From positions 1 through 27,816 of the forward strand of contig DATDON010000178.1 of NCBI GenBank assembly GCA_035293225.1: a stretch of 27,816 bases of DNA. The letters run 5' to 3'. The translations under genes and the position numbers were made by a program. The DNA comes from Candidatus Manganitrophaceae bacterium. Lineage in GTDB: Bacteria; Nitrospirota; Nitrospiria; SBBL01; Manganitrophaceae. The notes below the pieces were generated by a model. That model did no database searches, was not told the origin of the DNA, and saw nothing but the letters and a program-made list of their open reading frames with translations. Below, piece after piece: positions 1,351 through 26,035 of this stretch. How positions within the stretch are numbered: position 1 is the stretch's first letter; each line of letters begins with the position of its first letter.

Positions 1351-1605
1351 TCAAAAAATTCCAAATCCCCGCCTTCCGATCGAAAAGGCGTCCACGGCCG
1401 AGACGATAAAAAAAACGATATTGAGAAGGATTCCTTTCGGTGTGTAATCCGAAATCATGTAAAAAAAGACGGACGGCGCCAAAAAACCGACGCCTCGGAT
1501 ATAGCGACGAAGGAAAAGATGTCCCAGGCCCGCAAAAAACAACGAGAGGAGAGCGGCGACCACCGCTCGCCAGACCGGCCTCGGCTCAGCCCGGTTGTCT
1601 GCCAT
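1351..1605 (-). CDS. Small membrane protein (about 84 aa, 2-3 TM; AALLSLFFAGLGHLF motif)
   Basis: Start reassigned to ATG 1605 (MADNRAEP; GAAGGGA RBS), overlapping the last 20 nt of the dehydrogenase gene. Contains hydrophobic segments. Confidence 0.7.
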   Translation of the reverse strand: MADNRAEPRPVWRAVVAALLSLFFAGLGHLFLRRYIRGVGFLAPSVFFYMISDYTPKGILLNIVFFIVSAVDAFSIGRRGFGIF

Positions 1606-2647
1606 GGTTTCCCTTCTCAAGCCGTTCCCGCGCCAACCGGTCGGCCGCTTCGGAAGTGGAAATCGATTCTTTTTTAGCAAGGGCGAAAACGGCTTTCAGC
1701 CGATCATAGATTCGCTCTATTTTTTGAGTCGCCCGCTCTTTAGAGTAGCCGGTCAGCTCATCGGAAATATTGATCAGTCCGCCCGCGTTGATGACATAGT
1801 CGGGGGCGTATAAAATCTTCCGCTCTTCCAAGAGGAGGGCGGCTTGGGGGGTCTCCAATTGATTATTGGCGGAGCCGGCGACGATCGGGCAGGAAAGCCG
1901 CGGGATCGTCCTCTCATTTAAGGACCCTCCCAAAGCGCAGGGGGCGTAAATATCGCATTCCACCCGATAAATCTCATGCCCTAAAAGGGGATCGGCGCTA
2001 AAGGCGCGGGTCCCCATCGCCACCCGCTCCGGGTCCATATCGGAGATATAGAGTTTGGCGCCCGCCTGATGGAGCAGTTCCGCCAAGGCGTACCCGACTT
2101 TCCCCATCCCCTGAATCGCTACCTTCTTCCCTTGAAAAGAGCCGCTCCCGAAAACTTCCTCGAGACAGGCGCGCATTCCGCAAAAAACCCCGTAGGCGGT
2201 CGCGGGTGATGGATCGCCGCTCCCCCCTTGCTCCAGGGGAAATCCGGCGACATACGGGGTGACTTGTCGCATCCGTTCGATGTCGGAAAGGCTGATCCCC
2301 ACATCCTCCGCGACAACATACCGCCCTCCCAGCGAGCCGACGTATTTTGCGAAGGCGCTCAACTTTTTTTCCGTTTTGTCTTTCCGGGGGTCTCCCCAAA
2401 TAATACTCTTCCCTCCCCCCAACGAAAGTCCGCTGATGGCCGCCTTGTAGGTCATCGCCTTGGAGAGGCGGAGAACATCGGAAAGGGCCGCATCGAAGGT
2501 CGGGTACGGCCACATACGGCATCCTCCCAGGGCCGGCCCCAATCGCGTACTGTGAATGGCGATAATCGCCTGGAGACCGGACGGAGCGTCGGAGCAGAAG
2601 AGGACCTGCTCATGCCCCTCGATTTTCATCCGTTCGAATAGATCCAT
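1586..2647 (-). CDS. ldh: Glu/Leu/Phe/Val dehydrogenase, leucine-dehydrogenase type
   Basis: GPALGGCRM, MTYK, GGGKS, AEDVG, GDPSPATAYGV, GMGKVG, PCALG, GSANNQL and YAPDYVINAGGLI. Start reassigned to MDLFERM (ATG 2647). Confidence 0.85.
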   Translation of the reverse strand: MDLFERMKIEGHEQVLFCSDAPSGLQAIIAIHSTRLGPALGGCRMWPYPTFDAALSDVLRLSKAMTYKAAISGLSLGGGKSIIWGDPRKDKTEKKLSAFAKYVGSLGGRYVVAEDVGISLSDIERMRQVTPYVAGFPLEQGGSGDPSPATAYGVFCGMRACLEEVFGSGSFQGKKVAIQGMGKVGYALAELLHQAGAKLYISDMDPERVAMGTRAFSADPLLGHEIYRVECDIYAPCALGGSLNERTIPRLSCPIVAGSANNQLETPQAALLLEERKILYAPDYVINAGGLINISDELTGYSKERATQKIERIYDRLKAVFALAKKESISTSEAADRLARERLEKGNHGRQPG

Positions 2648-2660
2648 CCGTTTTTTTCCT

Positions 2661-2722
2661 GTAAGGGAGCGCCGATGCGCGCCCCATTGAAGGGAGCAGG
2701 CACACACCGATCCGCCCCCTAC
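2661..2722. repeat. Degenerate GTAG-type REP-like inverted doublet
   Basis: Begins GTAAGGGAGCGCC..GCGCGCCCC and ends GGGAGCAGGCACACACCGATCCGCCCCCTAC: two GC-rich imperfect palindromes head-to-head with GTA(A/G)GGG...CCCCTAC ends. Only one clear copy in the window. Confidence 0.4.
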
Positions 2723-2731
2723 GTTTGACGT

Positions 2732-4006
2732 TTACGGATACAATCCCCGGGCCAGGTGCGCCTTGGCGATCCGTTCAATCCCGCTGATCAACGCCGCCAT
2801 CCGCATATCGATTTTATCCGAAAGCGACCGGGCCAGAACTTGTGAGAACGACCCCGTGATGATCTCCGCCAGACGGTCATGGATCTCTTTTTCTTTCCAG
2901 AAATAGTTTTGAAGGTCCTGGACCCATTCGAAGTAGGAGACGATCACCCCTCCCGCGTTCGCGAGGATATCGGGAATGACAAAGACGCCGCGATCCCGCA
3001 AGATCGCGTCGGCTTCCAGCTCCGTCGGCCCGTTCGCCCCTTCCGCCAAGATCCGGCATTGGAGACGGTCCGCGTTTTTAAGGTGAATCGCTCCCGACAA
3101 CGCGGCCGGGATCAGGACCGTGCAGGGGAGTTCCAAGAGTCGATCCGCCGGAACCCCTTCCGCTCCCGGAAAACCGACCACCGTTTTGTTCTCCTCTTTA
3201 TGGGCGAAAAGACGGCCGAGATCGAGCCCCTTCGGGTGATAGACCCCCCCTTTGGAATCGGACACCCCCACGACCCGAATCCCATGCCCGGACAACATCC
3301 TGGCGGCGTTTTTCCCGACATTCCCAAACCCTTGGATGATGGCGGCGCTTTCCGAAACCGGAATGCGCAGATGGCGCATCGCCTCCAAAATAGTCACAAA
3401 GAGCCCGCGGCCGGTCGCCTCTTCCCGTCCCAAAGAGCCGCCGATACTGATCGGCTTTCCGGTGACGACCCCCGGGACGGCGTAGCCGACCTGCTGGCTG
3501 TAGGTGTCCATCATCCAGGCCATGATCTGCTCGTTCGTTCCGACGTCCGGCGCCGGAATATCCTTATCGGGGCCGATCATCGGGAATATCTCGGCGGTAT
3601 AACGCCGCGTCAGCCGTTGCAATTCATTGCGGGAAAGGGACTTTGGATCGCACCGGATCCCCCCTTTCGCCCCGCCGTAGGGAAGTTGGACCAGGGCGCA
3701 TTTCCAGGCCATTCGCATCGCGAGGGCCGAGACCTCTCCCAAGTTGACGCCGGGATGGTAGCGGATTCCCCCCTTGAACGGGCCGAGGGCGGAGTCGTGT
3801 TGAACGCGATAGCCCCGGAAAACCTGGACCCGGCCGTCGTCGCGTCGGATCGGGACGCTGACGATAAGGGCCCGCTCGGGGGTCTTGAACCGCTCGCGGA
3901 GATTCGGATCGAGACGCATCAGCTCCGCGGCGCGTTCAAGCTGCCCCAGGGCCAAACGGTACTCCGATTGGTCAAACTCGTCCAGTTCGTCGGGTCGATT
4001 TTCCAA
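2732..4006 (-). CDS. gdhA: NAD(P)-dependent glutamate dehydrogenase
   Basis: TTG start. Motifs GPFKGGIRY, MAWK, GGAKGG, DIPAPD, GKP..GGS.GR.EATGRG, QGFGNVG, EGANGP and NAGGVIVSYFEW; substrate-binding Lys and Ser are intact. Confidence 0.9.
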   Translation of the reverse strand: MENRPDELDEFDQSEYRLALGQLERAAELMRLDPNLRERFKTPERALIVSVPIRRDDGRVQVFRGYRVQHDSALGPFKGGIRYHPGVNLGEVSALAMRMAWKCALVQLPYGGAKGGIRCDPKSLSRNELQRLTRRYTAEIFPMIGPDKDIPAPDVGTNEQIMAWMMDTYSQQVGYAVPGVVTGKPISIGGSLGREEATGRGLFVTILEAMRHLRIPVSESAAIIQGFGNVGKNAARMLSGHGIRVVGVSDSKGGVYHPKGLDLGRLFAHKEENKTVVGFPGAEGVPADRLLELPCTVLIPAALSGAIHLKNADRLQCRILAEGANGPTELEADAILRDRGVFVIPDILANAGGVIVSYFEWVQDLQNYFWKEKEIHDRLAEIITGSFSQVLARSLSDKIDMRMAALISGIERIAKAHLARGLYP

Positions 4007-4071: not shown

Positions 4072-5067
4072 TCATTTCGCCGACGGCGCGGAAGCGTTTT
4101 CGATTTCAAATTGTATCGCGGCATGACCGATTTTAAAACGTTGACAGAGAAGGAAATTGATCGTTCTCAAAATATGCGCCGTCTCCTTTAGAGGCATGTC
4201 CTGCACCGCGACATGGGCCGACAGGGCGTACATCCCGGAGGTGAGCGTCCAAACATGAACGTCGTGCACGTCCCGCACCTCTTTAATCACCTTCACCGCC
4301 TCGATCACCCGCTCCGGGTCGATTTCCTTCGGCGTCGCTTCCAATAAGATATCGACCGAGTCGATCATGAGCCGAAACGCCCAAAAGAGAATAAAAAAAG
4401 ACAAAAGCGCCCCGACGAGGGGGTCCAAAAACCACCATTGCGTAAAATAAATCACCCCCGCGGCGGCCACGACCCCTACCGATGAGAGGGTGTCTCCCAT
4501 CAGATGCAGAAAGGCCGACCGGAGATTGATGCTCCGCCGCGTCGTCCCGCTTAAGAGGAACGCCGCGCCCAAATTGGCGGCCAATCCGATCAGGGCGATC
4601 ACCATCATCTCAAAGGAGGCGACCGGCTGGGGGGCGTAAAATCGGTGATACGCTTGGTAGAAAATCCAAAAGGTGACCAGAAGGAGAAGAAAGCCGTTTA
4701 AAAGGGCCGCTAAAATTTCAAGCCGGTAAAACCCGAACGTCTTTTTTGAGGTCGGCGGCTTCAGTGAAAAGACCAGCGCCAAATAACTGATCAACAACGC
4801 AAGGAGATGGGACAACATATGGCCGGCGTCCGATATCAGCGCCAAGCTGTTCGACCAGATCCCCCCGACCACTTCCAGGAGCATGACGGCGCCGGTCAAT
4901 ATAATCGCCCCGACTAATTTCCTTCGCTCCTCCGAACGGACGGATAAGGACGAAGGGGGAACCATCGCCTCGTGGGGATGATCCACATCAAAACCGCAGG
5001 TATGCTCATGGAGATGATAGATTTCCTTCTCCCCATGATGACTGTGATTATTATGGCGCCCGCTCAT
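4072..5067 (-). CDS. Cation diffusion facilitator (CzcD/ZitB-like) with His-rich N-terminus
   Basis: SNSLALISDAGHMLSH, FGFYRLEILAALLN, NLRSAFLHLMGD, DPL and the C-terminal HDVHVW...HV metal-binding domain. N-terminus RHNNHSHHG..HLHEHTC...DHPH. Confidence 0.9.
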   Translation of the reverse strand: MSGRHNNHSHHGEKEIYHLHEHTCGFDVDHPHEAMVPPSSLSVRSEERRKLVGAIILTGAVMLLEVVGGIWSNSLALISDAGHMLSHLLALLISYLALVFSLKPPTSKKTFGFYRLEILAALLNGFLLLLVTFWIFYQAYHRFYAPQPVASFEMMVIALIGLAANLGAAFLLSGTTRRSINLRSAFLHLMGDTLSSVGVVAAAGVIYFTQWWFLDPLVGALLSFFILFWAFRLMIDSVDILLEATPKEIDPERVIEAVKVIKEVRDVHDVHVWTLTSGMYALSAHVAVQDMPLKETAHILRTINFLLCQRFKIGHAAIQFEIENASAPSAK

Positions 5068-5085
5068 CCCCCACCTCTTTGTAAA

Positions 5086-5286
5086 TTATTTCCAGAGTCC
5101 TTTTAAACCTTTCCATGAAAAATAAAGGATTCCTAAAACCAAAAAATAAATGACGACCAAAGATATCTTAGGCCGGATCGGATAGAGGGTCAAGGCGACG
5201 TAAATAAGGAGGCCGAGTAAAAATTGCGCGACGAGAAGGCTCCCCCCTCCCTTTCCCCTTTTCGACGCCGGCTTCGATTCAGTCAT
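5086..5286 (-). CDS. Small membrane protein (66 aa, 2 TM hairpin)
   Basis: ATG with GGAG RBS; two hydrophobic segments; stops 18 nt before the CDF start. Confidence 0.62.
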   Translation of the reverse strand: MTESKPASKRGKGGGSLLVAQFLLGLLIYVALTLYPIRPKISLVVIYFLVLGILYFSWKGLKGLWK

Positions 5287-5545
5287 GATTCGACTCCATA
5301 CTATATCATACGGTCCGAGAAAACCAAATATCTCCTCCCGGCGAGCCGGACGGCGGGGAGACCGGCGTGTTTATCCGCTTCACAATCCTCACGGGATAAA
5401 TCATCTTTATGATCCGGCCTAGGCGCATATGGCGTTGAAACAGGTTTTTTGAGGATGGAAATAGAAAAGCGGCGGCGCCTCTTTGAGATAACAATAGGCG
5501 CGAGGAAAATTGCGAAGAAGTCATCTGATGAAACGGTGTCGTTGT

Positions 5546-5905
5546 TTAAGGGATCTCCTCGATTCCTTTATCCGGCTTTGATTCTTGTTTTTGGGTCATC
5601 TCTTCAAACGATTTCATAAGACTGTCGTGTTTTTGGATCATATCTTCGACCTCCCCGACCATGTCGGCCAGTTTCTTTTTCATCGCCTTTCGACCGGAAA
5701 CGGAGAGTTTCCCTTCCATAATCTTTTGAGTGGCGTCTACATTGTCTTTCATGACATTCAACATTTGATGCAGGAGGCGATGGTGTTCCCTTAAGACTTG
5801 ACTTCTGCTGATGGTCTCTTCCGCGTAAACCTTCCCAACCCCCTTCGCAAAAAATACGAAAACAACAGTTAAAAGAATAAGGCTCGCTCCGAACTTCAAA
5901 ATCAT
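5546..5905 (-). CDS. Exported helical His/Met-rich protein
   Basis: Signal peptide ending VYA. Mature part has 4 His and 8 Met in about 91 aa with a helical pattern. ATGA overlap with the upstream DUF507 gene. Confidence 0.75.
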   Translation of the reverse strand: MILKFGASLILLTVVFVFFAKGVGKVYAEETISRSQVLREHHRLLHQMLNVMKDNVDATQKIMEGKLSVSGRKAMKKKLADMVGEVEDMIQKHDSLMKSFEEMTQKQESKPDKGIEEIP

Positions 5906-6177
5906 TTTCTCCTTTTTTTCATTTCCTCATTAAATGTCTTTTGGTAAAGGATATCCCATTCAGGACTTCCTTCGACGATCTTTCTTGAATAAGAAGCCAA
6001 TTTCGCCCGGACCATCTCATCGAGCTGTTCGTCTTGCTTCATCTCTGAAAAAAAAATCCGCTTAATGCCCCGAAGAAGCTCCGGCTGGGAAGCCTTCCGT
6101 TCGACGTCCGGATCCTTTTCCAAACCCTGTAGAATGAGGTGGGAGAGGTGGTTGATTTTATCTTCGCTCAAGATCAT
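5902..6177 (-). CDS. DUF507 family protein
   Basis: Start reassigned to MILSEDKINHLSHLIL (ATG 6177). C-terminal EGSPEWDILYQK..NEEM is typical of this family as I recall it. Confidence 0.72.
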   Translation of the reverse strand: MILSEDKINHLSHLILQGLEKDPDVERKASQPELLRGIKRIFFSEMKQDEQLDEMVRAKLASYSRKIVEGSPEWDILYQKTFNEEMKKRRK

Positions 6178-6221
6178 GGAGTCCGATCCATTGCCCGAAC
6201 ACACCCCGTAAGAAATGCAGA

Positions 6222-6503
6222 TTAGAGAACCAGGTCCCGCTCTTTCACCAACTGCTTTTTGATCATTTGAAACATTTTCTGATAATCGACCTCGCCCTTT
6301 TCCATCTCTCGCTCGTAGCCTTTCAAGATTTCCTTCACTTCCGCGTTCAGACGATCCTCCACCTGCAAGTCGTCCAGAATAATCTTTTCTATTTTCGGCG
6401 CCAACGCTTCCTTTTTAGATCGCAGGCCAATAAGCCCTTCATGAAGGAGCGTTTCGGAAATGGTTTTTGAAAGGGCGGCGACCCGTTCTTTCGGAAGTCT
6501 CAT
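6222..6503 (-). CDS. DUF507 family protein
   Basis: Start reassigned to MRLPKERVAALSK (ATG 6503). Contains EDRLNAEVKEIL..YE.E...VDYQKMFQMIKKQL; tandem with its paralogue. Confidence 0.72.
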   Translation of the reverse strand: MRLPKERVAALSKTISETLLHEGLIGLRSKKEALAPKIEKIILDDLQVEDRLNAEVKEILKGYEREMEKGEVDYQKMFQMIKKQLVKERDLVL

Positions 6504-6605
6504 GCCCGGTAGAATAACAGAAGGCGGAAAGGGTGTCAATAAAGAGGGCCGCGCGCACGGGGTGAGCCGATGAGAAGATGGAAAACATTCTGGAGAAAAG
6601 GCCGC

Positions 6606-7028
6606 CTATGACTTTTCTCGAATAATCACTTCGGCGTCGATAAAAAACTCAAAGGGCCGGCCGGCCTGTCTTCCTTCCTTATGGTAGACCCCCTGGACGA
6701 GAACGTTATGTCCCTGGCGCACCGCCGGGGGGGTCAAACTGATGACCTTAATCGTTGAAGTGGGATCGATCGTGTTTGATCCCTCTTCTTCAAGGACCAG
6801 GATCACATATTCGCTTCCGCGTCGGCCGACTTGACCTTCAATCGATTGAACACGGCCGGTCACCACCACACGGCGCCCGTCGTACTCGCCCGACTCCGTC
6901 AACAGATCATTTAGCGTCACAAGCATCGGAAGCTCTTTGGAAGGCCCTTTTGCCTCCCCCCTCTCCCCGTTTGAAAGCATTAAAACCGCCGTCACGATCA
7001 ACAAGGTGAGAATTTTTTTCGAATACAT
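6606..7028 (-). CDS. Exported OB-fold-like protein
   Basis: Signal peptide (MYSKKILTLLIV..; alternative ATG at 7046). Strand pattern Y-DGRRVVVTGRV...ILVL...GHNVLVQGVY is typical of OB folds. Fold assigned by pattern only. Confidence 0.65.
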   Translation of the reverse strand: MYSKKILTLLIVTAVLMLSNGERGEAKGPSKELPMLVTLNDLLTESGEYDGRRVVVTGRVQSIEGQVGRRGSEYVILVLEEEGSNTIDPTSTIKVISLTPPAVRQGHNVLVQGVYHKEGRQAGRPFEFFIDAEVIIREKS

Positions 7029-7082
7029 ATGAATTTGCCTCTTCATTACAACGACCCTTTTAAATGGATCGGTCTTCTGATA

Positions 7083-7103
7083 TAATCCGCCTTAATCGGA
7101 TTA
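7083..7103. promoter_or_regulatory. Inverted repeat TAATCCG-N7-CGGATTA in a divergent promoter region
   Basis: Perfect 7-bp arms overlapping a TATAAT hexamer (7081-7086) in an AT-rich 100-bp divergent spacer. Confidence 0.4.
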
Positions 7104-7145
7104 AACATCTTACATATATATTATACAATATTTTAGGAGGTTTTA

Positions 7146-7691
7146 ATGAAGACTCGGTATATTTCCCCGCTCCTTTTAGCCGCCTTAATTCAGTTTTTCG
7201 CCTTAAGTATATACCGGATCGGGCATGTGGCCGAACCGGGGATAGAAACAGAAGCGTCGGAAGAGCGGGAAGTGAATAAAAAAATTTTAGTGGAGCTATT
7301 CCTGGCGGCTGAACGTAAAAAAGATACCGATTCCATCAAGAAGGAATTTGAAGCCCTCTCCGTTATCCGGGTCCGGCCTCAATTCTTCCGTCTCGGAAAT
7401 CCACCCGAAAACATCGCGATCGGAAAGAATGTTCCCGCGCCGGTCGCGCGCCTTGCGATTCAGATCGCATTGACCTACAACCGCGGAGTCAAGTATCTTC
7501 TTCCGGAGTTTCGGTACTTTCCTGAGCACATCGTCATCGGCTCATCCGCTTTCGACGAAGCGTCCCAGGTCCCGATTACCCCCGGAGACCTGGATAGGCT
7601 ATCCGATCCCTCCCTGTCAACGGAGGAGTTTCATACCCTTTACCGGCAGCTAACCGGAGAGGATAAACGCCTCCCCACATATCTGGATTGA
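7146..7691 (+). CDS. Exported/membrane-anchored protein of unknown family (paralogue of 15339-15899)
   Basis: AGGAGG RBS and hydrophobic N-terminus. Shares PP.N..IGK.V...ARLAI..A..YNRG and DL.RLSDP.LST..F..LYR.L with the 186-aa ORF. Confidence 0.8.
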   Translation: MKTRYISPLLLAALIQFFALSIYRIGHVAEPGIETEASEEREVNKKILVELFLAAERKKDTDSIKKEFEALSVIRVRPQFFRLGNPPENIAIGKNVPAPVARLAIQIALTYNRGVKYLLPEFRYFPEHIVIGSSAFDEASQVPITPGDLDRLSDPSLSTEEFHTLYRQLTGEDKRLPTYLD

Positions 7692-7695
7692 ATCC

Positions 7696-8565
7696 CTAGG
7701 GACTTTGGAGTTCCACGGTGGGAGGAAAGAGGTGTCGAGGTTGGAGCGCGGTTTCCAGGCGGTATTTGGTCTGCAGGTCATGCACAGGGATGTCCACCTC
7801 AGCCGCGTCAAATTCAAAATTCAACTCCACCTTTCCGTTCTCCGCCACCGTGATCTGTTGCGCCTGCGGCTTCATGTGCGGATGCCATGCGATCACATCG
7901 TATCTCCCCGACGGAAGGTCCGGGATCGTGAAGCTCCCATCTTGTCCCGTCACCGCAAAATAGGGGTTCCCGACCGCCATCCCCCACGATTGCATATAAT
8001 CATGCACCCCGCACTGCGTCCGAAAGATATAATGCCCCTTCCGAAGATGGACCTCCTTCGCGGCGATCGTCTCAGGCGTCAACGGCTTGTTGAACATCGC
8101 GAAGGTGTAGTCGTCTTTCAAGGTGTATCCCTGAATGTCGTGCGCGATGGTGTCTTTGTTGATCAGGGTAATCCGGTGGTTGTTTCGGACCGGCGCCACG
8201 AACGGGGCGATCCGGCAGTTCTCAACGGTCAACTCCGGCGTGTAGTCGAACTTCTTCCCCTTCTCGACCCCTACCACGGCGACGACGACATCCTGAAACC
8301 CGCCGTCTTCGGCGACTCGGAATTCCTTCAACAGCCGGTTCCCTTTTCCGTCGGAGATTCTTCCGCAGAAATCAAGATTTGGAGAGAAGATCAGGTGGAA
8401 GATCCGCGAGGGAGGCGGGGGGGCCTTCAGGAAAACCTTTCCCGCGACGACCCCCTTGGAGGTCACCGTGATCTCTTCGTACCCAAAAACGGCCAACGGA
8501 CGACCCGCCGTAACGGCAGCCCAAATACCCGCGGCAACGATCCATGTGACGAATCTTGGTCTCAT
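7696..8565 (-). CDS. Exported cupredoxin-like domain plus carboxypeptidase-regulatory-like (transthyretin-type) domain protein
   Basis: Start reassigned to MRPRFV (GGAGGAG RBS). Signal peptide; IAHD plus QCGVHDYM (H...C-x2-H-x2-M); C-terminal NPYFAVT..DGSFTI.DLP.G.Y...AWHP. Confidence 0.83.
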   Translation of the reverse strand: MRPRFVTWIVAAGIWAAVTAGRPLAVFGYEEITVTSKGVVAGKVFLKAPPPPSRIFHLIFSPNLDFCGRISDGKGNRLLKEFRVAEDGGFQDVVVAVVGVEKGKKFDYTPELTVENCRIAPFVAPVRNNHRITLINKDTIAHDIQGYTLKDDYTFAMFNKPLTPETIAAKEVHLRKGHYIFRTQCGVHDYMQSWGMAVGNPYFAVTGQDGSFTIPDLPSGRYDVIAWHPHMKPQAQQITVAENGKVELNFEFDAAEVDIPVHDLQTKYRLETALQPRHLFPPTVELQSP

Positions 8566-8576
8566 CTCCTCCTCCC

Positions 8577-9503
8577 TCAGCAATAGGGCGCTTCACAACT
8601 CTCCAGGTGATCGTGGGGACGCGCTTCGGGACCGACCCGAAATTTCTCCTGGCTTTCGTATTGCGGCCGGACCACCTGACTGGAGTCAAATTCAAAGTCC
8701 ACCGTGACGGCCCCGTTGGCCGAGACGGTCACCTCTTGTTCAATCGGTTTAAGATGGGGATGCCAAGCGGTCAGCTTATAGGTTCCGGGAGGCAATTGAT
8801 CAATCACAAATTCCCCCCCTTTTTTCGTCTTCGCGTAATAAGGATTATCGACCACGAATCCCCAGCTCTGCATGAACTCATGCATCCCGCAGATCATCTG
8901 TGAGATTCTTTTTCCGGATTTGAAATGAAGAACCCCCCCTCTCGGCTCGGTTGAAACGGGGAGCGGGAAGTTTAGAATGATATTCCCCCTTTCATTTTGA
9001 AAGACCTGGCCGTTATGGATGATCGGGTCTTTGTTGACCACCGAGATGGGACGATGGTTTTCCAAAACCATCACCAAAGGGTGCTCATGACGCAGTTTTC
9101 CTCCGGGAGCGGTTGAGAATTGCTCGCTGGACGGGACATCCGCAGGATGAAACATGCAGTCGACCGCGACCAATTCGTTTTTGATGTGTGGAAAGGGCTT
9201 CCCTTTTTTAACCCGTTGCACCGCCACGATGGCGTCCTGCATTCCGCCGTCGGAGGAAACGGCGAATTCCTCGAGACGGATGTTTCCCTGCCCATCCGAT
9301 ATTTTTTTGCAGAAAGGCCCGAATGGGTAGAGAACAAGGGGAAAGACGCGCGGTTCCGGGATCGCCCCTTTTAATTTGACCTTTCCGTTGATCGATCCGC
9401 CGTCCTCGACATTCATCTCTTCATAACCGAAGGCGACGCCTGTAAACATCGCGAGAGCCCCGACCCAGAACAAGCCCATCGCCAGAAGACTTGATTTCTT
9501 CAT
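8577..9503 (-). CDS. Exported cupredoxin-like plus carboxypeptidase-regulatory-like domain protein (paralogue of 7696-8565)
   Basis: Signal peptide; IIHN plus ICGMHEFM; NPYYAKT..GGEFVIDQLPPG.Y...AWHPH; C-terminal tail HDHLESCEAPYC. Confidence 0.83.
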   Translation of the reverse strand: MKKSSLLAMGLFWVGALAMFTGVAFGYEEMNVEDGGSINGKVKLKGAIPEPRVFPLVLYPFGPFCKKISDGQGNIRLEEFAVSSDGGMQDAIVAVQRVKKGKPFPHIKNELVAVDCMFHPADVPSSEQFSTAPGGKLRHEHPLVMVLENHRPISVVNKDPIIHNGQVFQNERGNIILNFPLPVSTEPRGGVLHFKSGKRISQMICGMHEFMQSWGFVVDNPYYAKTKKGGEFVIDQLPPGTYKLTAWHPHLKPIEQEVTVSANGAVTVDFEFDSSQVVRPQYESQEKFRVGPEARPHDHLESCEAPYC

Positions 9504-9523
9504 GTTGATACTCCCATCATAAG

Positions 9524-9563
9524 AAAAATCAGGACAGGGAATTTTCCCCCTGTCCTGATTTTT
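9524..9563 (-). terminator. Intrinsic terminator hairpin between the oxidase gene and the cupredoxin genes
   Basis: Perfect 16-bp inverted repeat AAAAATCAGGACAGGG-N8-CCCTGTCCTGATTTTT. On the minus strand the GC stem is followed by TTTTTCTT; the T tract on the other side makes it potentially bidirectional. Confidence 0.75.
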
Positions 9564-9588
9564 TAAATCATGCTATTTCCGCGATCCG

Positions 9589-12500
9589 CTATTTATGGAG
9601 CAGGGACATGGGCCCGGGGACTTCATCTTCCGTTCCGGTCGCCGTCTTAGTCCCCGGCGAACCGCTATTCAGCGGGAGAATCCTCCGGTCTCCTGCGTCA
9701 AGCACCCGCAGGTACCCCCACTGCCCCGCCGCCGCGTAAGGCATCCGATGATTCTGCCAGACATAGTCTCCCGGGATACGGAACGGCCCGCCGGCCCCCT
9801 CTTTTAAATAAACATCAAGTTGCTCCGACCCGCCGAATTGAAGGCTGCTGAGCATGTCGGCGCCCTCCATGTTCGGTTTAAACGGCCATTCATGCCCTTC
9901 GATGCTGAAGATCTGGTTCTGCTCGTTGAACGCTCCGAAGACATGGATCCTCACCGGATCGCCGGCGTGCGCCTGAATCACCGGCGTCGCCAGACCGCTC
10001 TCTCCCGCGACACAGGCGGTGAACATGTTTCCAGGCTCGCACCCTTGTTCCTCCCGGTAGAGCCACGGCTCGCTCCGGTAGTTCACCCCGGTCAATCCCC
10101 CGATCTGTTGAATGTACGGCATAAAGGAGGTCCCGATGATATTGTCCTCGTCCTGGAAGAAAAGGGAGGCGTCCCGGAAGTCGGACCGATTCGTGTTTTC
10201 CGGAATCGATCGATCGATGATCACATCCGCCTGCCAAGCGTTCTTCAACGAAACATCGTCCCCCGTCATCGGATCACGATATTTCGATCCCTTCGGCCCG
10301 ACGACGATCGCCCCAAACAGCCCGTCTCTCACGTTGTTGATGAAGTTCCCCCAGTCCCACACCAACGCCGCCGTCTCCCCATATTGCGGATGGGCGTAGA
10401 AGGTGTAGGTCCGGCTCTTTCCCGGCGCCACCGTCTGATCCCCGGGGTTCATCCCGACATTGACCCCATGCGAATCCTTTGGGTCAAAGGCGAGCATGTC
10501 GGCGCTGAACGAGGCGTGGCTCCCTTTCATCTCGTTCTTGAGGTTGATCTTAATACAGTCTCCGACGTTCACATGCAGGGTCAGCGGCATCGGCTGGAAT
10601 CCGTCCGTCGCCACTTTCGACTTCTCCCCTTCGAGCATGTAGATCTTCCCGCTGGGGTTCGCCACCTGCAGTTTCCGGTCAAAGTCGACCTCGATCAGGT
10701 CGGGCGCCTTGCTGTTGAACTTCAAGGCGCGGTCGGCGGCGATGACGTTGAAGCTCTTTACCGGCGCGTCCGCCGGGCAGACCGACTTCGCCGACGCCGG
10801 GATTTCATCCCGACCCGGGAGCTTCTTCAGATCGGGGGTCTCCTTGTCCAACACCCGGACAATCCCCCAACTCCCTTCCGAGAGGTGAGAGGCCCGGCCG
10901 TTATAATGGAGGTAATCCCCGGCGATCTGCTGGGCGCCTCCCGCTTTGGTGACCAGATCATACCGCTCCGCAATCCCGACATGATGGGCGTTCCGGAAGT
11001 CCGATTTCTCGGCGTACCGCTCCGTCCGGAAGGCGTGTCCGGCGATATGCCACACGTGGCTCTCGTTCATTAACGTATGAAGGAGCCTGAACACCATGGT
11101 GTCCCCCAGATAGGCCCGAAGGAGCGGCGTGCTCGGATCTTGATGGGCCTTGCTGGAGAAGATAAGGGTCGGATCCGGGTTCATCTTCAGCCGTCTCGCG
11201 ACCGATTCCGCCCGGAAGTTGAATCCCCCTCCGGTGGTGTGGGTCCCGCCGTTGATCATCTTCACCGCGATCTTATCGAGGTTATACGGCATCTGGAACG
11301 AGAGGGTCTGGCCGGCGTCGATCGCGACTTGGATCGACTGCCCCGGTGGATTTCCTTCGGTGACGACCTGCGCCGTGGTCGGCACGGTATCGTGCGGCAT
11401 CACCACCATCTCGCGGAAGCTTCCGTTTACCCCGTACCCGATCGGCTCGATCGAGCGAATATCGGCGATCGGGCCGCTCCGGACCGGCGCCCCGGTACTG
11501 GGATTGTGGTAGGTTGAGCCGACCGGCTCCACGATCATCGCCCCCACCCCGCCGTGCGGCCAGGTGGTAGCGCCGAAGGCGTGGTCGTGCCAGAAGACCG
11601 TTCCGATATCGGAATCGACCCAGTACCGCTCCCGGATAAACTCCACCGATATATTCTCCCCTTTTCTGTGGGCATGCTTTAACGGAGCGTTAAACGTGAT
11701 GGTGTCTCCTTTAATGTTTTTGATCCAAAGGATTTCAGCGCTCTTGACCTCATCGGTCCCAACCATCAAGTCGGTCCCGACATGGTAAGGGGTCGCCCCT
11801 TCGGCCATCTTGATCTTGATGCTCGTCGCCCCCGCCTTCGCATCCTCCGTCAAGAGGGCGTTCATCGGGGTCGGCAGGCCTTTGTGTTTCTTCTTCTCCA
11901 TCTGCGTGAACGGCCGGACCGACTGCTCGTAGGAGAAGCCGGTGATTACGCCGTCGGAGGATTGGTTGTCGAATTGGATGAAGTGGGGATGAATGTTGAT
12001 CTTCGACATCTGGAAGTTGGTGGTGTCGTTATCCTCCCATTCGCTCGTCAGGATCATGTCAACGCAATCATAGACGTTGGCGCGATAAACGAGCGGGATC
12101 GTCTTTTCACCGGCCGGGTTGGCCCGGACCTCCGCCTCTTCCTCGTGGAGGACATAGAGAAGGCCGTCGGGATCGACAACCGGTTTCTCTTTCCCCAGCC
12201 CTTTGCTTAACTGAATCGGGGTCTGGATGAAGTGAATCGAATATTGCTTTCGCCCCGCATTTTCAGGGCAGAGGCTCCATCGCCCATGCTCCCCTGGTTT
12301 GGCGGGCTGATTCGTCTCCTCACCCGGCGCTCCCTTCCCACCCGGATCGGTCGGCAATGCCCCGTTTTCTTTCATCATATGGATCGGCTCCAACCACGGC
12401 GCCGGACCATGATGACGGGCGAACGGAACCCGCTTCCCGAAGTGCGGCTTGAAATGCGGCCAGGCCAACTTTCCGGTCTTCGCTTCGAAGAGGAGTGGAG

Positions 12501-14478
12501 GCCGCTTGCCGGGTATCGGCGATTTGTACTTCGGATTGTCGAACTTTCCGGTCGCCTCCGGCTCTCCAAGGGCTTTATTTCCGTCCCAGGTCCAGTCCCA
12601 CACCGTGGCGTCGTAGGCGACGATCTGCCCCTTCTCATCCGAGGTATGGCCCGGCTGTCCGGCCGGCGGGAGCATCATTTTCACCCAATCCTTGACCGAC
12701 ACATCCGGAGTCGGCTTCGACCAATCCGATTTGTCTTTTGTAATGTTCCATTTCTTGTCGAACCAGTCCATCGTCCGGCCGACAAGATTGTCGGAGGTGA
12801 CCGCCGGCTTCATCCGTCCCTTCCGGTCGGGAAGCTCCTGCAACGGCGGCATGACGTCGGTGCTGGCCAAGGGATAATTCCCGGATTGAATGGTATTATA
12901 AACCCGCCAGTAACCCCACATGCCGGCGACATAATGGTGCGCCACATGGCAGTGGAAGAGAAAGTCCCCCGCCAGCTGCTGACAAAGACCCGAACCGCAT
13001 TCCGTCTGAAGATCAAGCACCTCGGAAGGGCCGATCACCTGGACATCGACCCGGTCGGAGGTCGTCCGGACCTCGGGATATTTCACCGGGCCGTTTCCCG
13101 CCGCGGTCATCAAGAAATCTCCCTTGCCGTCGGCCTTCGGCTGACGCAGCCAGCGGATCGTCCCGCCGTGGGGATGGTGGGAATGGAAGACCTCTCCCCC
13201 CCCGTGTACCAGGCGGAACTTGGCCGGATCCCCCATGTACGACCGGGGGATGGTGGTGGGAGCGTCGCCGAAGGTATAAGAGCTGTACGACATCGACTCG
13301 TCTTCAAAGTGGAAATATTTCTCTTGAACGGCGAGGTTGTTGACCCCGAACGGCTCGCTCCGATAGTTCATCGCCCGGGCGGAGGGACGGTAGGCGTCGG
13401 TGTTCGGATCCCGTTGCGGTATCATCTCTCCCTGCCGGTTCAACGGCCGGAACGACTCGTCCCCGATCTCATGGTAGATGAGGACGAATTCCCTGAAGTC
13501 GGGGCGGTTCGGATCTTCGATCATCACCTGCCAGCCGCTCTTGGTCTCCTTGCCGGTGATCGGATCAAGATAACGGGAACCGATCGGTTCAACGATAAAG
13601 GTCCCGATCATCCCAAGGCTTGATTGCTCCCGCCCGACATGGCTGTGGAACGCGTGCCCCCCCTCCTGCTCATCCGGCCGAATGTACCATTCAAAGACCT
13701 GCTTTTCGCCCGGCTTGACCGTGGACTCCGGATTGGCGATGGTGGCGGCCTTACCGCTGGCTCGCACAATGGCGCTTGAACCGTGGATATGAAGGCTCAC
13801 ATCTTCGCCGTCCAGTTTATTCTGGAGGGTCAAGACGATACAATCCCCCTGATTTCCGCGAATATTGAGCGGCTGGATCAGGTCGGTCTGAAGACCGTTT
13901 GAAACCGCGCCCGGATCATATCCCGGTTTGGCCCTCGCCTCTCTATTCTTCTTCTCCTCCTCCCGGACCTTCTCAAGGTTCTCGGTCAGAACATACATAT
14001 AGCCCGGATGGTAGTCGAGCCACTGGTTCAAGGTGACCTCCACGTTGACGGCGGAGACATCATATTCTCTCACCGAGGCGTTTTTGGGGCAGCGGCCCGC
14101 CGCCGCCACGCTCTCGCTCGCGCCGGTCGGACCGAGGAAGAAACTCCGGTCCATCTGCTGCATCATCGCCATCCCGCTGAAAGGCCCCGTCTCCCCGGCA
14201 TGACCGTCGTGGCCTTTGCTCCCTTTGGAGATCTCCTCCATCAGCTTATTCATCGCCGCTTCCACCTTGTCGGCATGCCCGGCGCGGCCTTCCATCTCAT
14301 CTTCCCTGGCAAGCTGGGCTTTAAACCGCTCTTCCCATCCCGCCGATGAGGCCGCCTGAGCGTCCGGGGCGCTTCCGTGGGCATGGTCGTCTCCTCCCGC
14401 GATCGCCCACTTTCCGGTTGAGACCGCCAGCAAGATTGCGAAGATCACATTTAAACAATTTCTCTTTGAGATTTTCAT
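9589..14478 (-). CDS. Large exported multicopper oxidase, six cupredoxin domains, MnxG-like
   Basis: Signal peptide; H230xH232, H278xH280, H432xxH435xH437, H509-C510-H511..H515..M520 (complete type-1 site), H830xH832, H964xH966 and H1141xxH1144..H1148, followed by degenerate motifs. Substrate cannot be determined from sequence. Confidence 0.9.
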   Translation of the reverse strand: MKISKRNCLNVIFAILLAVSTGKWAIAGGDDHAHGSAPDAQAASSAGWEERFKAQLAREDEMEGRAGHADKVEAAMNKLMEEISKGSKGHDGHAGETGPFSGMAMMQQMDRSFFLGPTGASESVAAAGRCPKNASVREYDVSAVNVEVTLNQWLDYHPGYMYVLTENLEKVREEEKKNREARAKPGYDPGAVSNGLQTDLIQPLNIRGNQGDCIVLTLQNKLDGEDVSLHIHGSSAIVRASGKAATIANPESTVKPGEKQVFEWYIRPDEQEGGHAFHSHVGREQSSLGMIGTFIVEPIGSRYLDPITGKETKSGWQVMIEDPNRPDFREFVLIYHEIGDESFRPLNRQGEMIPQRDPNTDAYRPSARAMNYRSEPFGVNNLAVQEKYFHFEDESMSYSSYTFGDAPTTIPRSYMGDPAKFRLVHGGGEVFHSHHPHGGTIRWLRQPKADGKGDFLMTAAGNGPVKYPEVRTTSDRVDVQVIGPSEVLDLQTECGSGLCQQLAGDFLFHCHVAHHYVAGMWGYWRVYNTIQSGNYPLASTDVMPPLQELPDRKGRMKPAVTSDNLVGRTMDWFDKKWNITKDKSDWSKPTPDVSVKDWVKMMLPPAGQPGHTSDEKGQIVAYDATVWDWTWDGNKALGEPEATGKFDNPKYKSPIPGKRPPLLFEAKTGKLAWPHFKPHFGKRVPFARHHGPAPWLEPIHMMKENGALPTDPGGKGAPGEETNQPAKPGEHGRWSLCPENAGRKQYSIHFIQTPIQLSKGLGKEKPVVDPDGLLYVLHEEEAEVRANPAGEKTIPLVYRANVYDCVDMILTSEWEDNDTTNFQMSKINIHPHFIQFDNQSSDGVITGFSYEQSVRPFTQMEKKKHKGLPTPMNALLTEDAKAGATSIKIKMAEGATPYHVGTDLMVGTDEVKSAEILWIKNIKGDTITFNAPLKHAHRKGENISVEFIRERYWVDSDIGTVFWHDHAFGATTWPHGGVGAMIVEPVGSTYHNPSTGAPVRSGPIADIRSIEPIGYGVNGSFREMVVMPHDTVPTTAQVVTEGNPPGQSIQVAIDAGQTLSFQMPYNLDKIAVKMINGGTHTTGGGFNFRAESVARRLKMNPDPTLIFSSKAHQDPSTPLLRAYLGDTMVFRLLHTLMNESHVWHIAGHAFRTERYAEKSDFRNAHHVGIAERYDLVTKAGGAQQIAGDYLHYNGRASHLSEGSWGIVRVLDKETPDLKKLPGRDEIPASAKSVCPADAPVKSFNVIAADRALKFNSKAPDLIEVDFDRKLQVANPSGKIYMLEGEKSKVATDGFQPMPLTLHVNVGDCIKINLKNEMKGSHASFSADMLAFDPKDSHGVNVGMNPGDQTVAPGKSRTYTFYAHPQYGETAALVWDWGNFINNVRDGLFGAIVVGPKGSKYRDPMTGDDVSLKNAWQADVIIDRSIPENTNRSDFRDASLFFQDEDNIIGTSFMPYIQQIGGLTGVNYRSEPWLYREEQGCEPGNMFTACVAGESGLATPVIQAHAGDPVRIHVFGAFNEQNQIFSIEGHEWPFKPNMEGADMLSSLQFGGSEQLDVYLKEGAGGPFRIPGDYVWQNHRMPYAAAGQWGYLRVLDAGDRRILPLNSGSPGTKTATGTEDEVPGPMSLLHK

Positions 14479-14669
14479 AACCTCTCTCCTTAATCCTCGG
14501 TTAGTAACGACTTTTATTATTTTATTTTTTGCTTAGATTTAAACTGATATTTTCGGCCTTGGTTCCAAATTAGAACAACTTCGTTTTTAAGTTGAAATGG
14601 AAATCATCCGAATGCGGGACGCAGGTGGTCTTCGAGGTTAATCCGCGCTACTTCTATGAAATTGGGGTG

Positions 14670-14698
14670 AATCTAGCATGTGGAATGAGGTGTGTCAA
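14670..14698 (-). promoter_or_regulatory. Sigma70-type promoter of the oxidase gene
   Basis: Minus strand TTGACA-17 bp-TAGATT with extended -10 (TGc). Implies a 5' UTR of about 185 nt. Confidence 0.7.
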
Positions 14699-14704
14699 GT
14701 ATTT

Positions 14705-14718
14705 TTTACATCTGTCAA
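14705..14718. promoter_or_regulatory. FNR/Crp-like near-palindrome TTGAC-N4-GTAAA
   Basis: One mismatch from TTGAC-N4-GTCAA; lies just upstream of the -35 element. Confidence 0.35.
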
Positions 14719-14732
14719 TCTTTTTTTACGTT

Positions 14733-14750
14733 GTGTAAGCATGCTTACAC
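14733..14750. promoter_or_regulatory. Perfect 18-bp palindrome GTGTAAGCATGCTTACAC (operator candidate)
   Basis: Self-complementary over 18 bp; core TGTAA-N6-TTACA; about 35-50 bp upstream of the -35 of the oxidase promoter. Confidence 0.55.
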
Positions 14751-14839
14751 TTGTCCATTAAAATTTACAGGATCAGGCGCAAGAGAGGAGATCAGAGCAA
14801 TAGGGAATCAGATCCCTCTTTAGGCGACCCATCACGATG

Positions 14840-15232
14840 TTAATTAGGAAAGCCGACCTTGAGGGTGACCCGGCTGTTTTTAATTTTGGGAAGAAAAGAG
14901 CTGATGATATATGAATCAGAAATAATCTCTATTTTTTGATGAGGATCGATATATCTGTTCGCCACTGCCCTGGCCGCCGGAACATTTTCAGCGTCTAAAA
15001 GATCGTAATAGACATAGACCCGTTTTCGCCGGTCGGAGTTGTTTCGGACGGTGGCGCGCCAAACGAATTTGGTTTTACCGATCAACCCCCAGACTTCGTC
15101 GGGACGCCAATCATGGCTTAAGACCTCCAGGTCTGAAATATCCCGACCTTCCGCTCCGGCAAGGCAAAGGGGGGTTCCCCCCAGGATCATCAGGAGAAGG
15201 AAAAGCGCCGAACACGCGTGTCGAACGTCCAA
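14840..15232 (-). CDS. Exported beta-rich (Ig-like, FxLYD-reminiscent) protein
   Basis: Start reassigned to TTG 15232 (AGGAGGA RBS). Signal peptide; alternating beta-strand pattern, e.g. VRNNSD...VYVYYDLLD. Confidence 0.68.
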   Translation of the reverse strand: MDVRHACSALFLLLMILGGTPLCLAGAEGRDISDLEVLSHDWRPDEVWGLIGKTKFVWRATVRNNSDRRKRVYVYYDLLDAENVPAARAVANRYIDPHQKIEIISDSYIISSFLPKIKNSRVTLKVGFPN

Positions 15233-15338
15233 TCTATCCTCCTGCGGCGATTTAAAGCAATCGGACGGCCATGCTTGTTCCATCCCGAAAACGAGCGGCG
15301 CGGAATCCGACGGAAGCGGGCTCGCCGGGTCGAATCTT

Positions 15339-15899
15339 CTATCGGCTTTCCTCCCGTTTCTCGCTTCCCATTCCGAAAGGGAGCTTTTTCTCCTTCATGG
15401 TGGCAAGCCGCCGGTATAGGTCTTGAAACTGATCTGTGGAAAGCGCAGGATCCGACAACCGCGCCAGATCTTCAGGGCTGACCGGAATCCAGGAGATTTC
15501 GGCCAAGTCGGTCGAACCGATTTTGATCCAATGGTGCGGCAAAATATCCTGCATAATGAGCCGTTCGATCCCTCGATTATATGCGATCGCTTCGCGGATC
15601 GCCAGCCGGGCCTCTTCCGCCGAGACACATTTGCCGATACCCATGTTGGCGGGAGGGTCCAAGAAGGGAAAAATTTTAACTCGGACCTTCATCGATTCAC
15701 GCCCCTCTGTGAACGAGCGCTTCACCTCTTCAACACGGTCTTTCCATTTTTTAGAAAGAACTACCTCGACGATCGTCGGCTTCTCCCGGTTCTCCGGCGC
15801 GCCGCAGTTATAAACCGTTTGCGCCCGGAGGATATCCGCGCTCCCCAGCGCCAAGAAGACAATCCAGCAGATTAAAAAAAATGTCCGAGACATGCCCAA
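15339..15899 (-). CDS. Exported protein of unknown family (paralogue of 7146-7691)
   Basis: Signal peptide ending LRA; shared motifs with the 181-aa ORF; two Cys in the mature part. Confidence 0.8.
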   Translation of the reverse strand: MGMSRTFFLICWIVFLALGSADILRAQTVYNCGAPENREKPTIVEVVLSKKWKDRVEEVKRSFTEGRESMKVRVKIFPFLDPPANMGIGKCVSAEEARLAIREAIAYNRGIERLIMQDILPHHWIKIGSTDLAEISWIPVSPEDLARLSDPALSTDQFQDLYRRLATMKEKKLPFGMGSEKREESR

Positions 15900-15919
15900 A
15901 CCCCTTCCGATAAACCTAA

Positions 15920-16933
15920 TTATTTCTTTTGAGCGGAATCCTTCGAAGAGGCGAGGCGGTCGAGATATTTTCGCGCCCGGCTGTTTTGGGGGTCGAGTTC
16001 GAGGGTCCGTTTAAATGATTCGACGGCCGATTTTTTTAATTGAACCTGCTGATCCGGGTCGGTTAAAGTCGCCGCCAGCATGATTTGGGCCTCCCCAAGC
16101 GCAAAAAAAATTTCAGGCGAATTCTGTTTGACCGTCGACAGCGTCGAATATTCCCGGACCGCGTCCTGATATTGTTCACCTCTAAAGTAAATCCTCGCCA
16201 GCCGTTCCCGTGCCCGCGACTCGTTCGGATCCTCTTCAAGGAGCGTCTTCCATTGCCCCACCGCCTTGGAAAACTCCCCCTTCTTCTCATAAATGAGGCT
16301 CAAGTTATACCGCGCTTCCGTCAGTGAAGCGTCCAACTTCAACGCCTCTTCAAACTCTTTTTCCGCCTTGGCGAAGTCCTTTCGGTTGAAGTAAATATTT
16401 CCGATCCCGGCGTGGACGACGGCGACCCGCGGCGTCAGCTTGTTCGCCTGAAGGTAGGCGTTCAACGCCTCTTTTTCCTTCCCCATCCGGAGATAAACAT
16501 GCCCCAATGAGATAAAGGCGTGCTCATCACTCGGCGCCAAACGGGCGGCTTCTTGAAACTCCCGAACGGAATCCTCCAGCGCCCGGCTCTCCAGGTAAAG
16601 CCGGCCCAGCCAATAGCGGACCGTCGCGCTTTTCGGATGCTCCTGCGCCATTTTTTTATAATAGAGGATCGCCTTCGGCCCCTGGCGCGTCGCCAAAGAG
16701 GTCATGACCAACGCCTGATGATACTTGTGGGTTTCAAGGCTCAATTCGACCGCTTGGGTCAATTTCGCGATCGCTTCATCGTAGCGGCGCAGCTTGTTCA
16801 GTTCGTTCGCCTCCTCCAAATAAGACTTGGCGCTCTCTTCATCGGAAGACGTTGCGAACGAAATGGCCGGCGAAAAGAGAAGAAGCAAGCCGACGATGTA
16901 AACATTCAGGCGCATTTTGTGGCGATTCATCAT
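15920..16933 (-). CDS. Exported tetratricopeptide-repeat protein (about 8 repeats)
   Basis: Signal peptide LLLLFSPAISFA; 34-aa repeats such as ATVRYWLGRLY...A.RLAP and TEARYNLSLIY...LEEDP. Start may be 16933, 16930 or 16915. Confidence 0.85.
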   Translation of the reverse strand: MMNRHKMRLNVYIVGLLLLFSPAISFATSSDEESAKSYLEEANELNKLRRYDEAIAKLTQAVELSLETHKYHQALVMTSLATRQGPKAILYYKKMAQEHPKSATVRYWLGRLYLESRALEDSVREFQEAARLAPSDEHAFISLGHVYLRMGKEKEALNAYLQANKLTPRVAVVHAGIGNIYFNRKDFAKAEKEFEEALKLDASLTEARYNLSLIYEKKGEFSKAVGQWKTLLEEDPNESRARERLARIYFRGEQYQDAVREYSTLSTVKQNSPEIFFALGEAQIMLAATLTDPDQQVQLKKSAVESFKRTLELDPQNSRARKYLDRLASSKDSAQKK

Positions 16934-24300: not shown

Positions 24301-24314
24301 GGGGGAAAGCTTCC

Positions 24315-25993: not shown

Positions 25994-26035
25994 GCGTCGC
26001 GCCGGGATTCCGCGCGTCAAAGACATCAAATTCCG

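Follow-up and report, generated by a model that had tools for sequence, protein, structure and literature searches.

What does a giant multicopper oxidase do in a bacterium whose kin are the only known Mn(II) chemolithoautotrophs, and do the exported proteins encoded around it work with it? The question is raised by a stretch of 27,816 nucleotides (here called the window), one contig (DATDON010000178.1) of a 2.0-Mb metagenome-assembled genome (GCA_035293225.1) that is 79% complete and is placed in Candidatus (Ca.) Manganitrophaceae; the other families of the same order are named Troglogloeales. The window sequence was detected in DNA sequencing runs from soil and groundwater only. From 16933 down to 6606 its genes run in the order TPR337, parB186, p147, a gap, the multicopper oxidase (MCO), cup308, cup295, parA181 and OB146, all on the minus strand except parA181. 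We conclude that this interval is the Troglogloeales/Manganitrophaceae version of a conserved Nitrospiria–Nitrospinota module, and the account of it towards which we lean is that of a periplasmic oxidase which reduces O2 and is served by exported helpers and by blue-copper relay proteins of its own.

The open reading frames and coordinates of 5546-16933 agree with those of an initial annotation of this DNA, in which nearly all genes from 5.5 to 16.9 kb, a DUF507 pair excepted, were taken to encode exported proteins. Signal-like hydrophobic N-termini are indeed present from one end of this interval to the other (cc119, OB146, parA181, cup295, cup308, MCO, p147, parB186 and TPR337), and inspection of hydrophobicity detected none in either DUF507 protein. 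Throughout, "exported" refers to this judgement from hydrophobicity and visible A-x-A/G-type cleavage sites.

A giant MnxG-like multicopper oxidase

The MCO gene (9589-14478, minus strand) encodes a six-domain, MnxG-like protein of 1629 aa with matches to Pfam Cu-oxidase_3 and Cu-oxidase_2. Among solved structures it comes closest to Bacillus MnxG (PDB 9bxa chain A, E 8.7e-98, over six matched stretches), as the initial annotation had supposed, and the next solved match is ascorbate oxidase at E 5e-06. Against the NCBIfam equivalog model for the Pseudomonas-type MnxG (NF041487) it reaches only 134.8 bits, with the cut-off at 3100, and judged by its sequence it is a separate clade from that type and not its equivalog. 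It also falls below the CopA model TIGR01480 (20.7 bits against a cut-off of 479).

We aligned the protein with 28 homologues, drawn from Troglogloeales, Nitrospiraceae (N. defluvii among them), Nitrospinales and two other families. The type-1 (T1) copper ligands H432, C510, H515 and M520 are invariant, as are the trinuclear-cluster ligands H435, H437, H509, H511, H830, H832, H964 and H966, so that a single canonical T1 plus trinuclear centre is present with all twelve ligands. Because of the positions of these ligands, the trinuclear cluster draws on both two-domain units 1 and 2, an arrangement that it has in common with Bacillus MnxG. Because all twelve are invariant, O2 reduction has almost certainly been kept. 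The initial annotation had proposed that electrons might be linked to respiration instead of only reducing O2 to water; the invariance of the complete centre speaks against that part of it. Domain 1 has a further HIH/HSH pair, which is kept in Troglogloeales; in Nitrospira and Nitrospina it is degenerate, and Bacillus MnxG does not have it. We considered a second catalytic centre in this domain and rejected it, the pair being kept only in Troglogloeales and having no partner HCH half.

The signal of the MCO is of the Sec type and has no twin arginine; copper must therefore be inserted in the periplasm. Within residues 1-130 (14089-14478), the mature N-terminus is a low-complexity stretch of ~100 residues that precedes the first cupredoxin domain and holds His/Met runs (DDHAHG, HDGHAGE, GMAMMQQM). 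This stretch may be a copper-binding tail.

The MCO tree has two deep paralogue groups, and the window protein lies inside an "A-type" Troglogloeales clade. Sister to this clade, within the Nitrospiria diversity, is the Nitrospinales oxidase (support 100/99, on a long branch), a placement that might reflect transfer from one phylum to the other, a possibility also under discussion for NXR.

Two predicted blue-copper proteins encoded beside the oxidase

Directly downstream of the MCO lies cup308 (8577-9503, minus strand). Alignment and an AlphaFold2 (AF2) model give its exported product an Ig-like N-domain, a type-1 cupredoxin domain and a CarboxypepD_reg/transthyretin-like C-domain. Its neighbour cup295 (7696-8583, minus strand; translation may in truth begin with the ATG at 8565) is a paralogue, 39% identical, that lacks one insert of ~22 residues and retains the same invariant ligand set (CGVHDYM). 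Between p147 and the MCO, in a gap of 361 bp, a promoter-like site (TTGACA-17-TAGATT with TG; 14670-14698, minus strand), found by consensus scan only, suggests that MCO, cup308 and cup295 may be a transcription unit of their own.

The cupredoxin nature of these proteins is easily missed, as Pfam matches only the C-terminal CarboxypepD_reg domain, no cupredoxin model of Pfam or NCBIfam matches either protein, and the family carries "carboxypeptidase regulatory-like" names in databases. A profile of the family finds PDB amicyanin only marginally (E ~0.006). The ligands show more: all 18 of the aligned sequences have His163, Cys205, His208 and Met211, in the canonical order, Cys65 and Cys116 are invariant in the same alignment, and the motif CxxHxxM is present in 120 of the 120 best database homologues. 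In the AF2 model of cup308 (pLDDT 84.8) the central domain matches amicyanin, pseudoazurin, plastocyanin and a Nitrosopumilus cupredoxin with a Foldseek probability of 1.0. Judged from alignment and model, cup308 and cup295 are genuine type-1 cupredoxin-domain proteins with a predicted copper site, in line with the two putative type-1 Cu proteins of the initial annotation. They have in common with amicyanin and other single-domain type-1 cupredoxins the fold and the C-x2-H-x2-M spacing with an upstream His, and differ from amicyanin in that the cupredoxin domain sits between an Ig-like N-domain and CarboxypepD_reg.

In clusters of the AlphaFold database (AFDB), the cupredoxin plus transthyretin-like architecture is fused to cytochrome c, membrane redox or permease proteins. 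The conserved ligand set, the cupredoxin fold and the cytochrome fusions and neighbourhoods are marks of an electron-transfer module rather than of a chaperone. The two genes are separate orthologue lines, with cup295 always distal to cup308. The C-terminus of cup308 (8577-8600) reads CEAPYC, an ending found in one homologue, most others ending in EGEDRIIID; it may be a lineage-specific thiol pair.

Conservation of the oxidase and its neighbours

The order TPR–parB–p147–MCO–cup308(–second cup308)–cup295(–parA–OB146) is kept across Troglogloeales and recurs in families f1, f4, f13 and others (in our numbering) at MCO identities of 70-85%. Within it, the TPR gene stands upstream of the MCO in f1, f4, f13 and others, p147 lies between parB and MCO in f4 and other families, and OB146 follows parA in f1, f13 and several metagenome-assembled genomes of Nitrospirota.

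Of 60 Nitrospiria genomes sampled, 59 have the oxidase itself, usually in at least two copies; in ~190 genomes from the phylum's other classes it was not found. A cup gene directly follows it in most loci that reach far enough. This MCO–cup pair is found in Troglogloeales, at both N. defluvii copies, in other Nitrospiraceae, in families f12 and f13 and in Nitrospinales, and it persists across two phyla with changed surroundings at MCO identities down to 54-60%; oxidases duplicated within a genome carry cup genes of their own. A HEAT/TPR protein follows the pair in the N. defluvii operons, and TPR–parB–p147 and parA–OB146 were not found beside the N. defluvii MCO copies. The parA/B family occurs in 69 of 101 genomes of the class, mostly within ~2 kb of an MCO gene, and does so in Nitrospiraceae too, with seven genomes as examples (twice in one of them). 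Synteny across Nitrospirota, Mn oxidisers included, had been put forward in the initial annotation as a check, and it is on this conserved order that we base the extent of the module.

That extent is narrower than first proposed. The interval 6606-16933 is conserved as described, whereas cc119 and the DUF507 pair, which had been counted in from 5546, hold their positions together with a CDF exporter gene (4072-6539 in all) only within Manganitrophaceae, at two Manganitrophus loci. Synteny comparison did not find them beside the module in other families, and we rejected all of them as members of the system.

The initial annotation had also called the system heme-free. No CxxCH motif is present in any protein of the cluster, and for the window locus the description holds. 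It does not hold for the family at large: in Nitrospinales (L117, 9986-12757) the stop of a cup gene directly adjoins the start of the gene for a 635-aa protein, in which an NxrC-like EB_dh heme domain is combined with three cytochrome c stretches, and this cup–cytochrome pair is divergent from an MCO–cup operon. A thiol-peroxidase/SCO-like redoxin is encoded just upstream of that cup gene.

Other exported proteins of the module

TPR337 (15920-16933, minus strand), an exported TPR-repeat protein (Pfam TPR_2/TPR_11 and others, E 1e-30; signal-like N-terminus), is the first gene of a TPR–parB–p147 unit. It is followed by parB186 (15339-15899, minus strand), an exported alpha/beta protein whose paralogue parA181 (7146-7691, plus strand) was recognised by synteny and alignment and is divergent from OB146, with a promoter-like site at 7059-7086. 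The two are 31% identical and neither has a match in Pfam or NCBIfam, as expected of the paralogues of no known family that had been noted here. The AF2 model of parB186 is confident (pLDDT 91), and we found no solved relative of its fold (Foldseek against PDB, best E 0.09; VIA-align, best Z 3.3). Against AFDB clusters it retrieves unnamed proteins only, with weak LytR_C-like matches, and the protein atlas is empty for it.

The remaining two proteins are smaller. p147 (14840-15283, minus strand) is a signal- or TM-anchored beta-sandwich of Ig-like type with a weak match to NCBIfam FxLYD (E 2.8e-4); its structural neighbours in the atlas are DUF3426/YcfL-like (TM 0.55-0.61). OB146 (6606-7046, minus strand) is a small exported protein with no Pfam, NCBIfam or PDB match. 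Atlas feature matches to OB-fold clusters at 0.89-0.92, which are a lead only, make it possible that it has an OB-fold. Of the Ig-like, OB-fold, TPR and CDF proteins named in the initial annotation, the TPR and CDF proteins are thus clear, p147 is a beta-sandwich, and the OB-fold stands as that lead.

Expression of related genes in strain Mn1

For strain Mn1 during growth on Mn(II), seven transcriptomes are published in Table S6 of Yu et al. 2022 (PMC9040806), with one representative per gene cluster. The Mn1 MCO Ga0306812_1011759, a paralogue of the window MCO, ranges from 35 to 2200 (60-fold) and stands at the 95th expression percentile. In log values it co-varies with the cup gene 1011757 (r 0.84), the CopD-like gene 1011760 (r 0.97) and the sigma-54 regulator 1011761 (r 0.96), compared with r 0.19 for EF-Tu. 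The Mn1 locus orthologous to that of the window is a different one, at about Ga0306812_101928-101940. The initial annotation had held that its system would fall if the accessory genes were neither syntenic nor co-expressed with the oxidase elsewhere; what we found is a conserved order and, for the paralogous Mn1 MCO, correlations of 0.84-0.97 with its neighbours. A literature search on MCO expression in Nitrospira returned nothing usable.

The locus of genome G005 that matches 1011757-1011761 has exactly the same gene order. At the paralogous locus of this genome (L129, 14448-19973) a CopD-like membrane protein and a PAS/sigma-54 activator precede the MCO. Further upstream come genes for a small TPR protein, for an MCO-like protein of two domains and 336 aa and for a cytochrome b/cytochrome c fusion, and the two cup genes are followed by a hemerythrin and a flavodoxin-like protein.

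Relation to known systems

The Mnx complex of Bacillus sp. PL-12/SG-1 (MnxG with MnxE/MnxF; PDB 9bxa), a Mn(II)/Mn(III) oxidase, has the six-domain layout in common with the window MCO. In both, the HxxHxH/HCH half of the trinuclear cluster lies in the first unit and the HxH/HxH half in the second, and in each case a large oxidase has small accessory proteins encoded alongside it. The window MCO is longer (1629 against 1227 aa for MnxG) and has in addition its signal peptide and the HIH/HSH pair of domain 1. The partners differ too: MnxE/F in Bacillus, type-1 cupredoxin/Ig-domain proteins of ~300 aa in the window. As the initial annotation had it, no MnxE/F-like protein was found among the small neighbours by Pfam, NCBIfam and PDB searches at the sequence level.

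CueO, and PcoA/CopA with PcoC/CopC and PcoD/CopD, likewise combine a periplasmic MCO with small periplasmic copper proteins, and the CopD-like gene that accompanies the paralogous Manganitrophus MCO recalls these copper-resistance systems. Copper-resistance oxidases, however, have three domains and ~500-600 aa and are usually Tat-exported, and their partners carry CopC-type sites where the cup proteins carry redox-type T1 sites. We rejected a copper-resistance CopA/CueO system on size and domain number, on the TIGR01480 score and on the type of signal.

The description of the system as "undescribed" was overstated. In Lucker et al. 2013 (PMC3578206), an MnxG-like MCO of Nitrospina and Nitrospira is drawn with cupredoxin-like genes near the NXR cluster (Fig. 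6), and a role in defence against reactive oxygen species (ROS) is proposed, with Mn(III) as superoxide scavenger. The MCO of Nitrospina gracilis and Ca. Nitrospira defluvii belongs to the same oxidase family as that of the window (59-63% identity), and in N. defluvii and Nitrospinales the same cup family directly follows the oxidase, as it does in the window. The two cupredoxin-like genes of the 2013 paper may be members of this cup family. In contrast to the NXR-linked cluster, the window has no NXR genes, and Troglogloeales adds TPR–parB–p147 upstream and parA–OB146 downstream. In Pacific metaproteomes the Nitrospinae MnxG-like protein is reported to be the second most abundant oxidoreductase and to correlate with catalase (Saunders et al. 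2022, PMC9477243).

For Manganitrophaceae, Yu et al. 2022 reported "two novel MCOs" in the core genome, in the organism family to which the window belongs; these are the genes discussed here (82-84% identity between the window MCO and the Manganitrophus copies). The authors allowed them a role in lithotrophy only if electrons go to a periplasmic carrier. In that paper the cup proteins appear under the name "carboxypeptidase family protein", and copper carriers go unmentioned. The predicted blue-copper nature of the Manganitrophaceae partners and their linkage to the MCO are additions to it; the present analysis further adds the setting in Manganitrophaceae, the accessory set of Troglogloeales, the linkage of parA/B to the MCO and the co-expression drawn from the published table.

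A proposed mechanism and its rivals

On balance we consider it somewhat probable that the module is an O2-reducing oxidase served by its own blue-copper relays. A Sec-exported, six-domain MCO would have its T1 copper wired through the HCH motif to the trinuclear cluster, where O2 would be reduced to water with single electrons. From the same probable operon, cup308 and cup295 would each place an amicyanin-type blue-copper site between Ig-like and transthyretin-like domains. We infer that they would act as one-electron relays docking on or near the MCO, the most likely route running from other periplasmic carriers or an oxidised substrate to cup and on to the T1 copper of the MCO. TPR337, parA/parB, p147 and OB146 may be scaffold, assembly or copper-loading helpers for an oxidase that would leave the cytoplasm unfolded and take up copper once in the periplasm. 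The first candidate for its substrate, by homology to MnxG only, is Mn(II)/Mn(III).

Several points weigh against this relay scheme. We know of no characterised multicopper oxidase with a dedicated cupredoxin redox partner, and to our knowledge the mechanism would be without precedent. The helper roles of TPR, parA/B, p147 and OB146 are suggested by synteny only. The co-expression comes from a paralogous locus in another genus, where the MCO also tracks the stress GTPase TypA (r 0.95), and a shared stress regulon could explain it; the Mn1 orthologue of the window cup (101934) is steady and reaches only the 65th expression percentile. Finally, the cup family has Manganitrophus members (L059, L098, L099; 52-70% identity to cup308) that are separated from any MCO by >10 kb and adjoin unrelated genes (2-oxoacid dehydrogenase, sulfate permease, GGDEF/EAL, histidine kinase), and no link to a bd-like oxidase or a cytochrome was found in the neighbourhoods of L059 and L099. 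The cup family is not exclusively oxidase-bound, and oxidase-independent members exist.

Less probable than the relay scheme, and still to be taken seriously, is a stand-alone metal oxidase acting on Mn(II), Cu(I) or Fe(II) in metal or ROS protection, with cup and the other neighbours serving only in copper delivery, folding or anchoring. The Sec-type signal, with the periplasmic copper loading that it entails, would fit such a role, as would the CopD-like membrane protein co-expressed with the paralogous MCO, the tracking of TypA and the TPR/HEAT proteins in the operons. TPR/HEAT proteins are typical assembly factors. The ROS-defence proposal in PMC3578206 and the correlation of Nitrospinae "MnxG" with catalase (PMC9477243) point in the same direction. 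What the stand-alone oxidase accommodates poorly is the cup proteins: their complete, invariant His-Cys-His-Met site is a redox site atypical of chaperones, their fusions and neighbourhoods with cytochromes c indicate electron transfer, and two anciently separated lines are maintained side by side. Known Cu chaperones have Met/His or CxxC sites. Co-inheritance of neighbouring genes in related genomes, with no functional unit at all, is a disfavoured reading and the least probable that we weighed. The family-level retention of the DUF507 pair, cc119 and CDF shows that such neighbourhoods occur, and relatives are not independent samples; the MCO–cup pair, however, survives two phyla and altered surroundings, duplicated MCO copies come with cup genes of their own, and neighbours are co-expressed at the paralogous Mn1 locus.

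An energy-conserving route, in which the MCO would oxidise Mn(II) or Fe(II) and pass electrons from T1 through cup308/cup295 to the respiratory chain (bd-like oxidases, reverse electron flow), seems to us improbable. It has in its favour that the source genome belongs to Ca. Manganitrophaceae, that the adjacent T1 cupredoxins would be the periplasmic carriers required in Yu et al. 2022, and that one MCO copy stands so high in expression during Mn-oxidising growth. Yet the invariant trinuclear cluster with its Cys-His wire is a built-in sink for T1 electrons, and the module is equally universal in groups for which growth on Mn is not known, namely nitrite oxidisers, comammox Nitrospira and Nitrospinales. 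Moreover, the 60-fold spread of expression among Mn-oxidising cultures is unlike a core catabolic enzyme, and published comparative genomics favours Cyc2 and PCC_1. The stronger claim that the MCO is the Mn(II) oxidase of Manganitrophaceae lithotrophy, that cup proteins carry the Mn electrons from T1 to the respiratory chain, and that parA/parB are new oxidase-specific periplasmic assembly factors is, taken as a whole, a shade more doubtful again.

Other genes of the window

Next to OB146 lies the DUF507 pair (5902-6204 and 6222-6539, minus strand; Pfam DUF507), whose membership in the module is not supported, followed by cc119 (5546-5905, minus strand), a coiled-coil exported protein with a signal-like N-terminus. 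A 72-aa open reading frame (5306-5524, minus strand) without signal or database match is a doubtful gene, and beyond it stands the CDF exporter (4072-5067, minus strand), a clear match to Pfam Cation_efflux.

Housekeeping functions make up the flanks of the window, with genes for arginase, class II ribonucleotide reductase and two ELFV dehydrogenases, together with thiG/thiE and a Pup-proteasome operon. The tandem ELFV (glutamate/leucine) dehydrogenase genes occupy 1586-4006, and the upstream copy (373 aa) is a much poorer match to the Pfam domains than the other (424 aa). The Pup-proteasome operon (21059-27403) comprises an Mpa/ARC-type proteasomal AAA ATPase, two proteasome subunits, a member of the Pup-ligase family and one more open reading frame, of 455 aa, a gene set typical of Nitrospirota and Actinobacteria. 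No nxr, cytochrome c or bd-like oxidase gene is present in the 27.8-kb window; the nxr search did not extend to the rest of the genome.

Implications

The MCO family spans nitrite oxidisers, comammox bacteria and the only known Mn lithotrophs, plus Nitrospina. Two groups of proteins now offer concrete, expressible targets for biochemistry, namely the predicted blue-copper proteins misnamed "carboxypeptidase regulatory-like" and the exported parA/B family tied to the MCO. In Manganitrophaceae, candidate periplasmic carriers adjoin the MCO genes, which bears on the published caveat about MCO-based Mn lithotrophy. If the lithotrophy reading were true, Mn oxidation by a multicopper oxidase would conserve energy. 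If instead the partners only feed an O2-reducing oxidase, the module would be a non-conserving periplasmic electron sink or a protective system, and such a role would matter for the way nitrifiers handle oxygen and metals.

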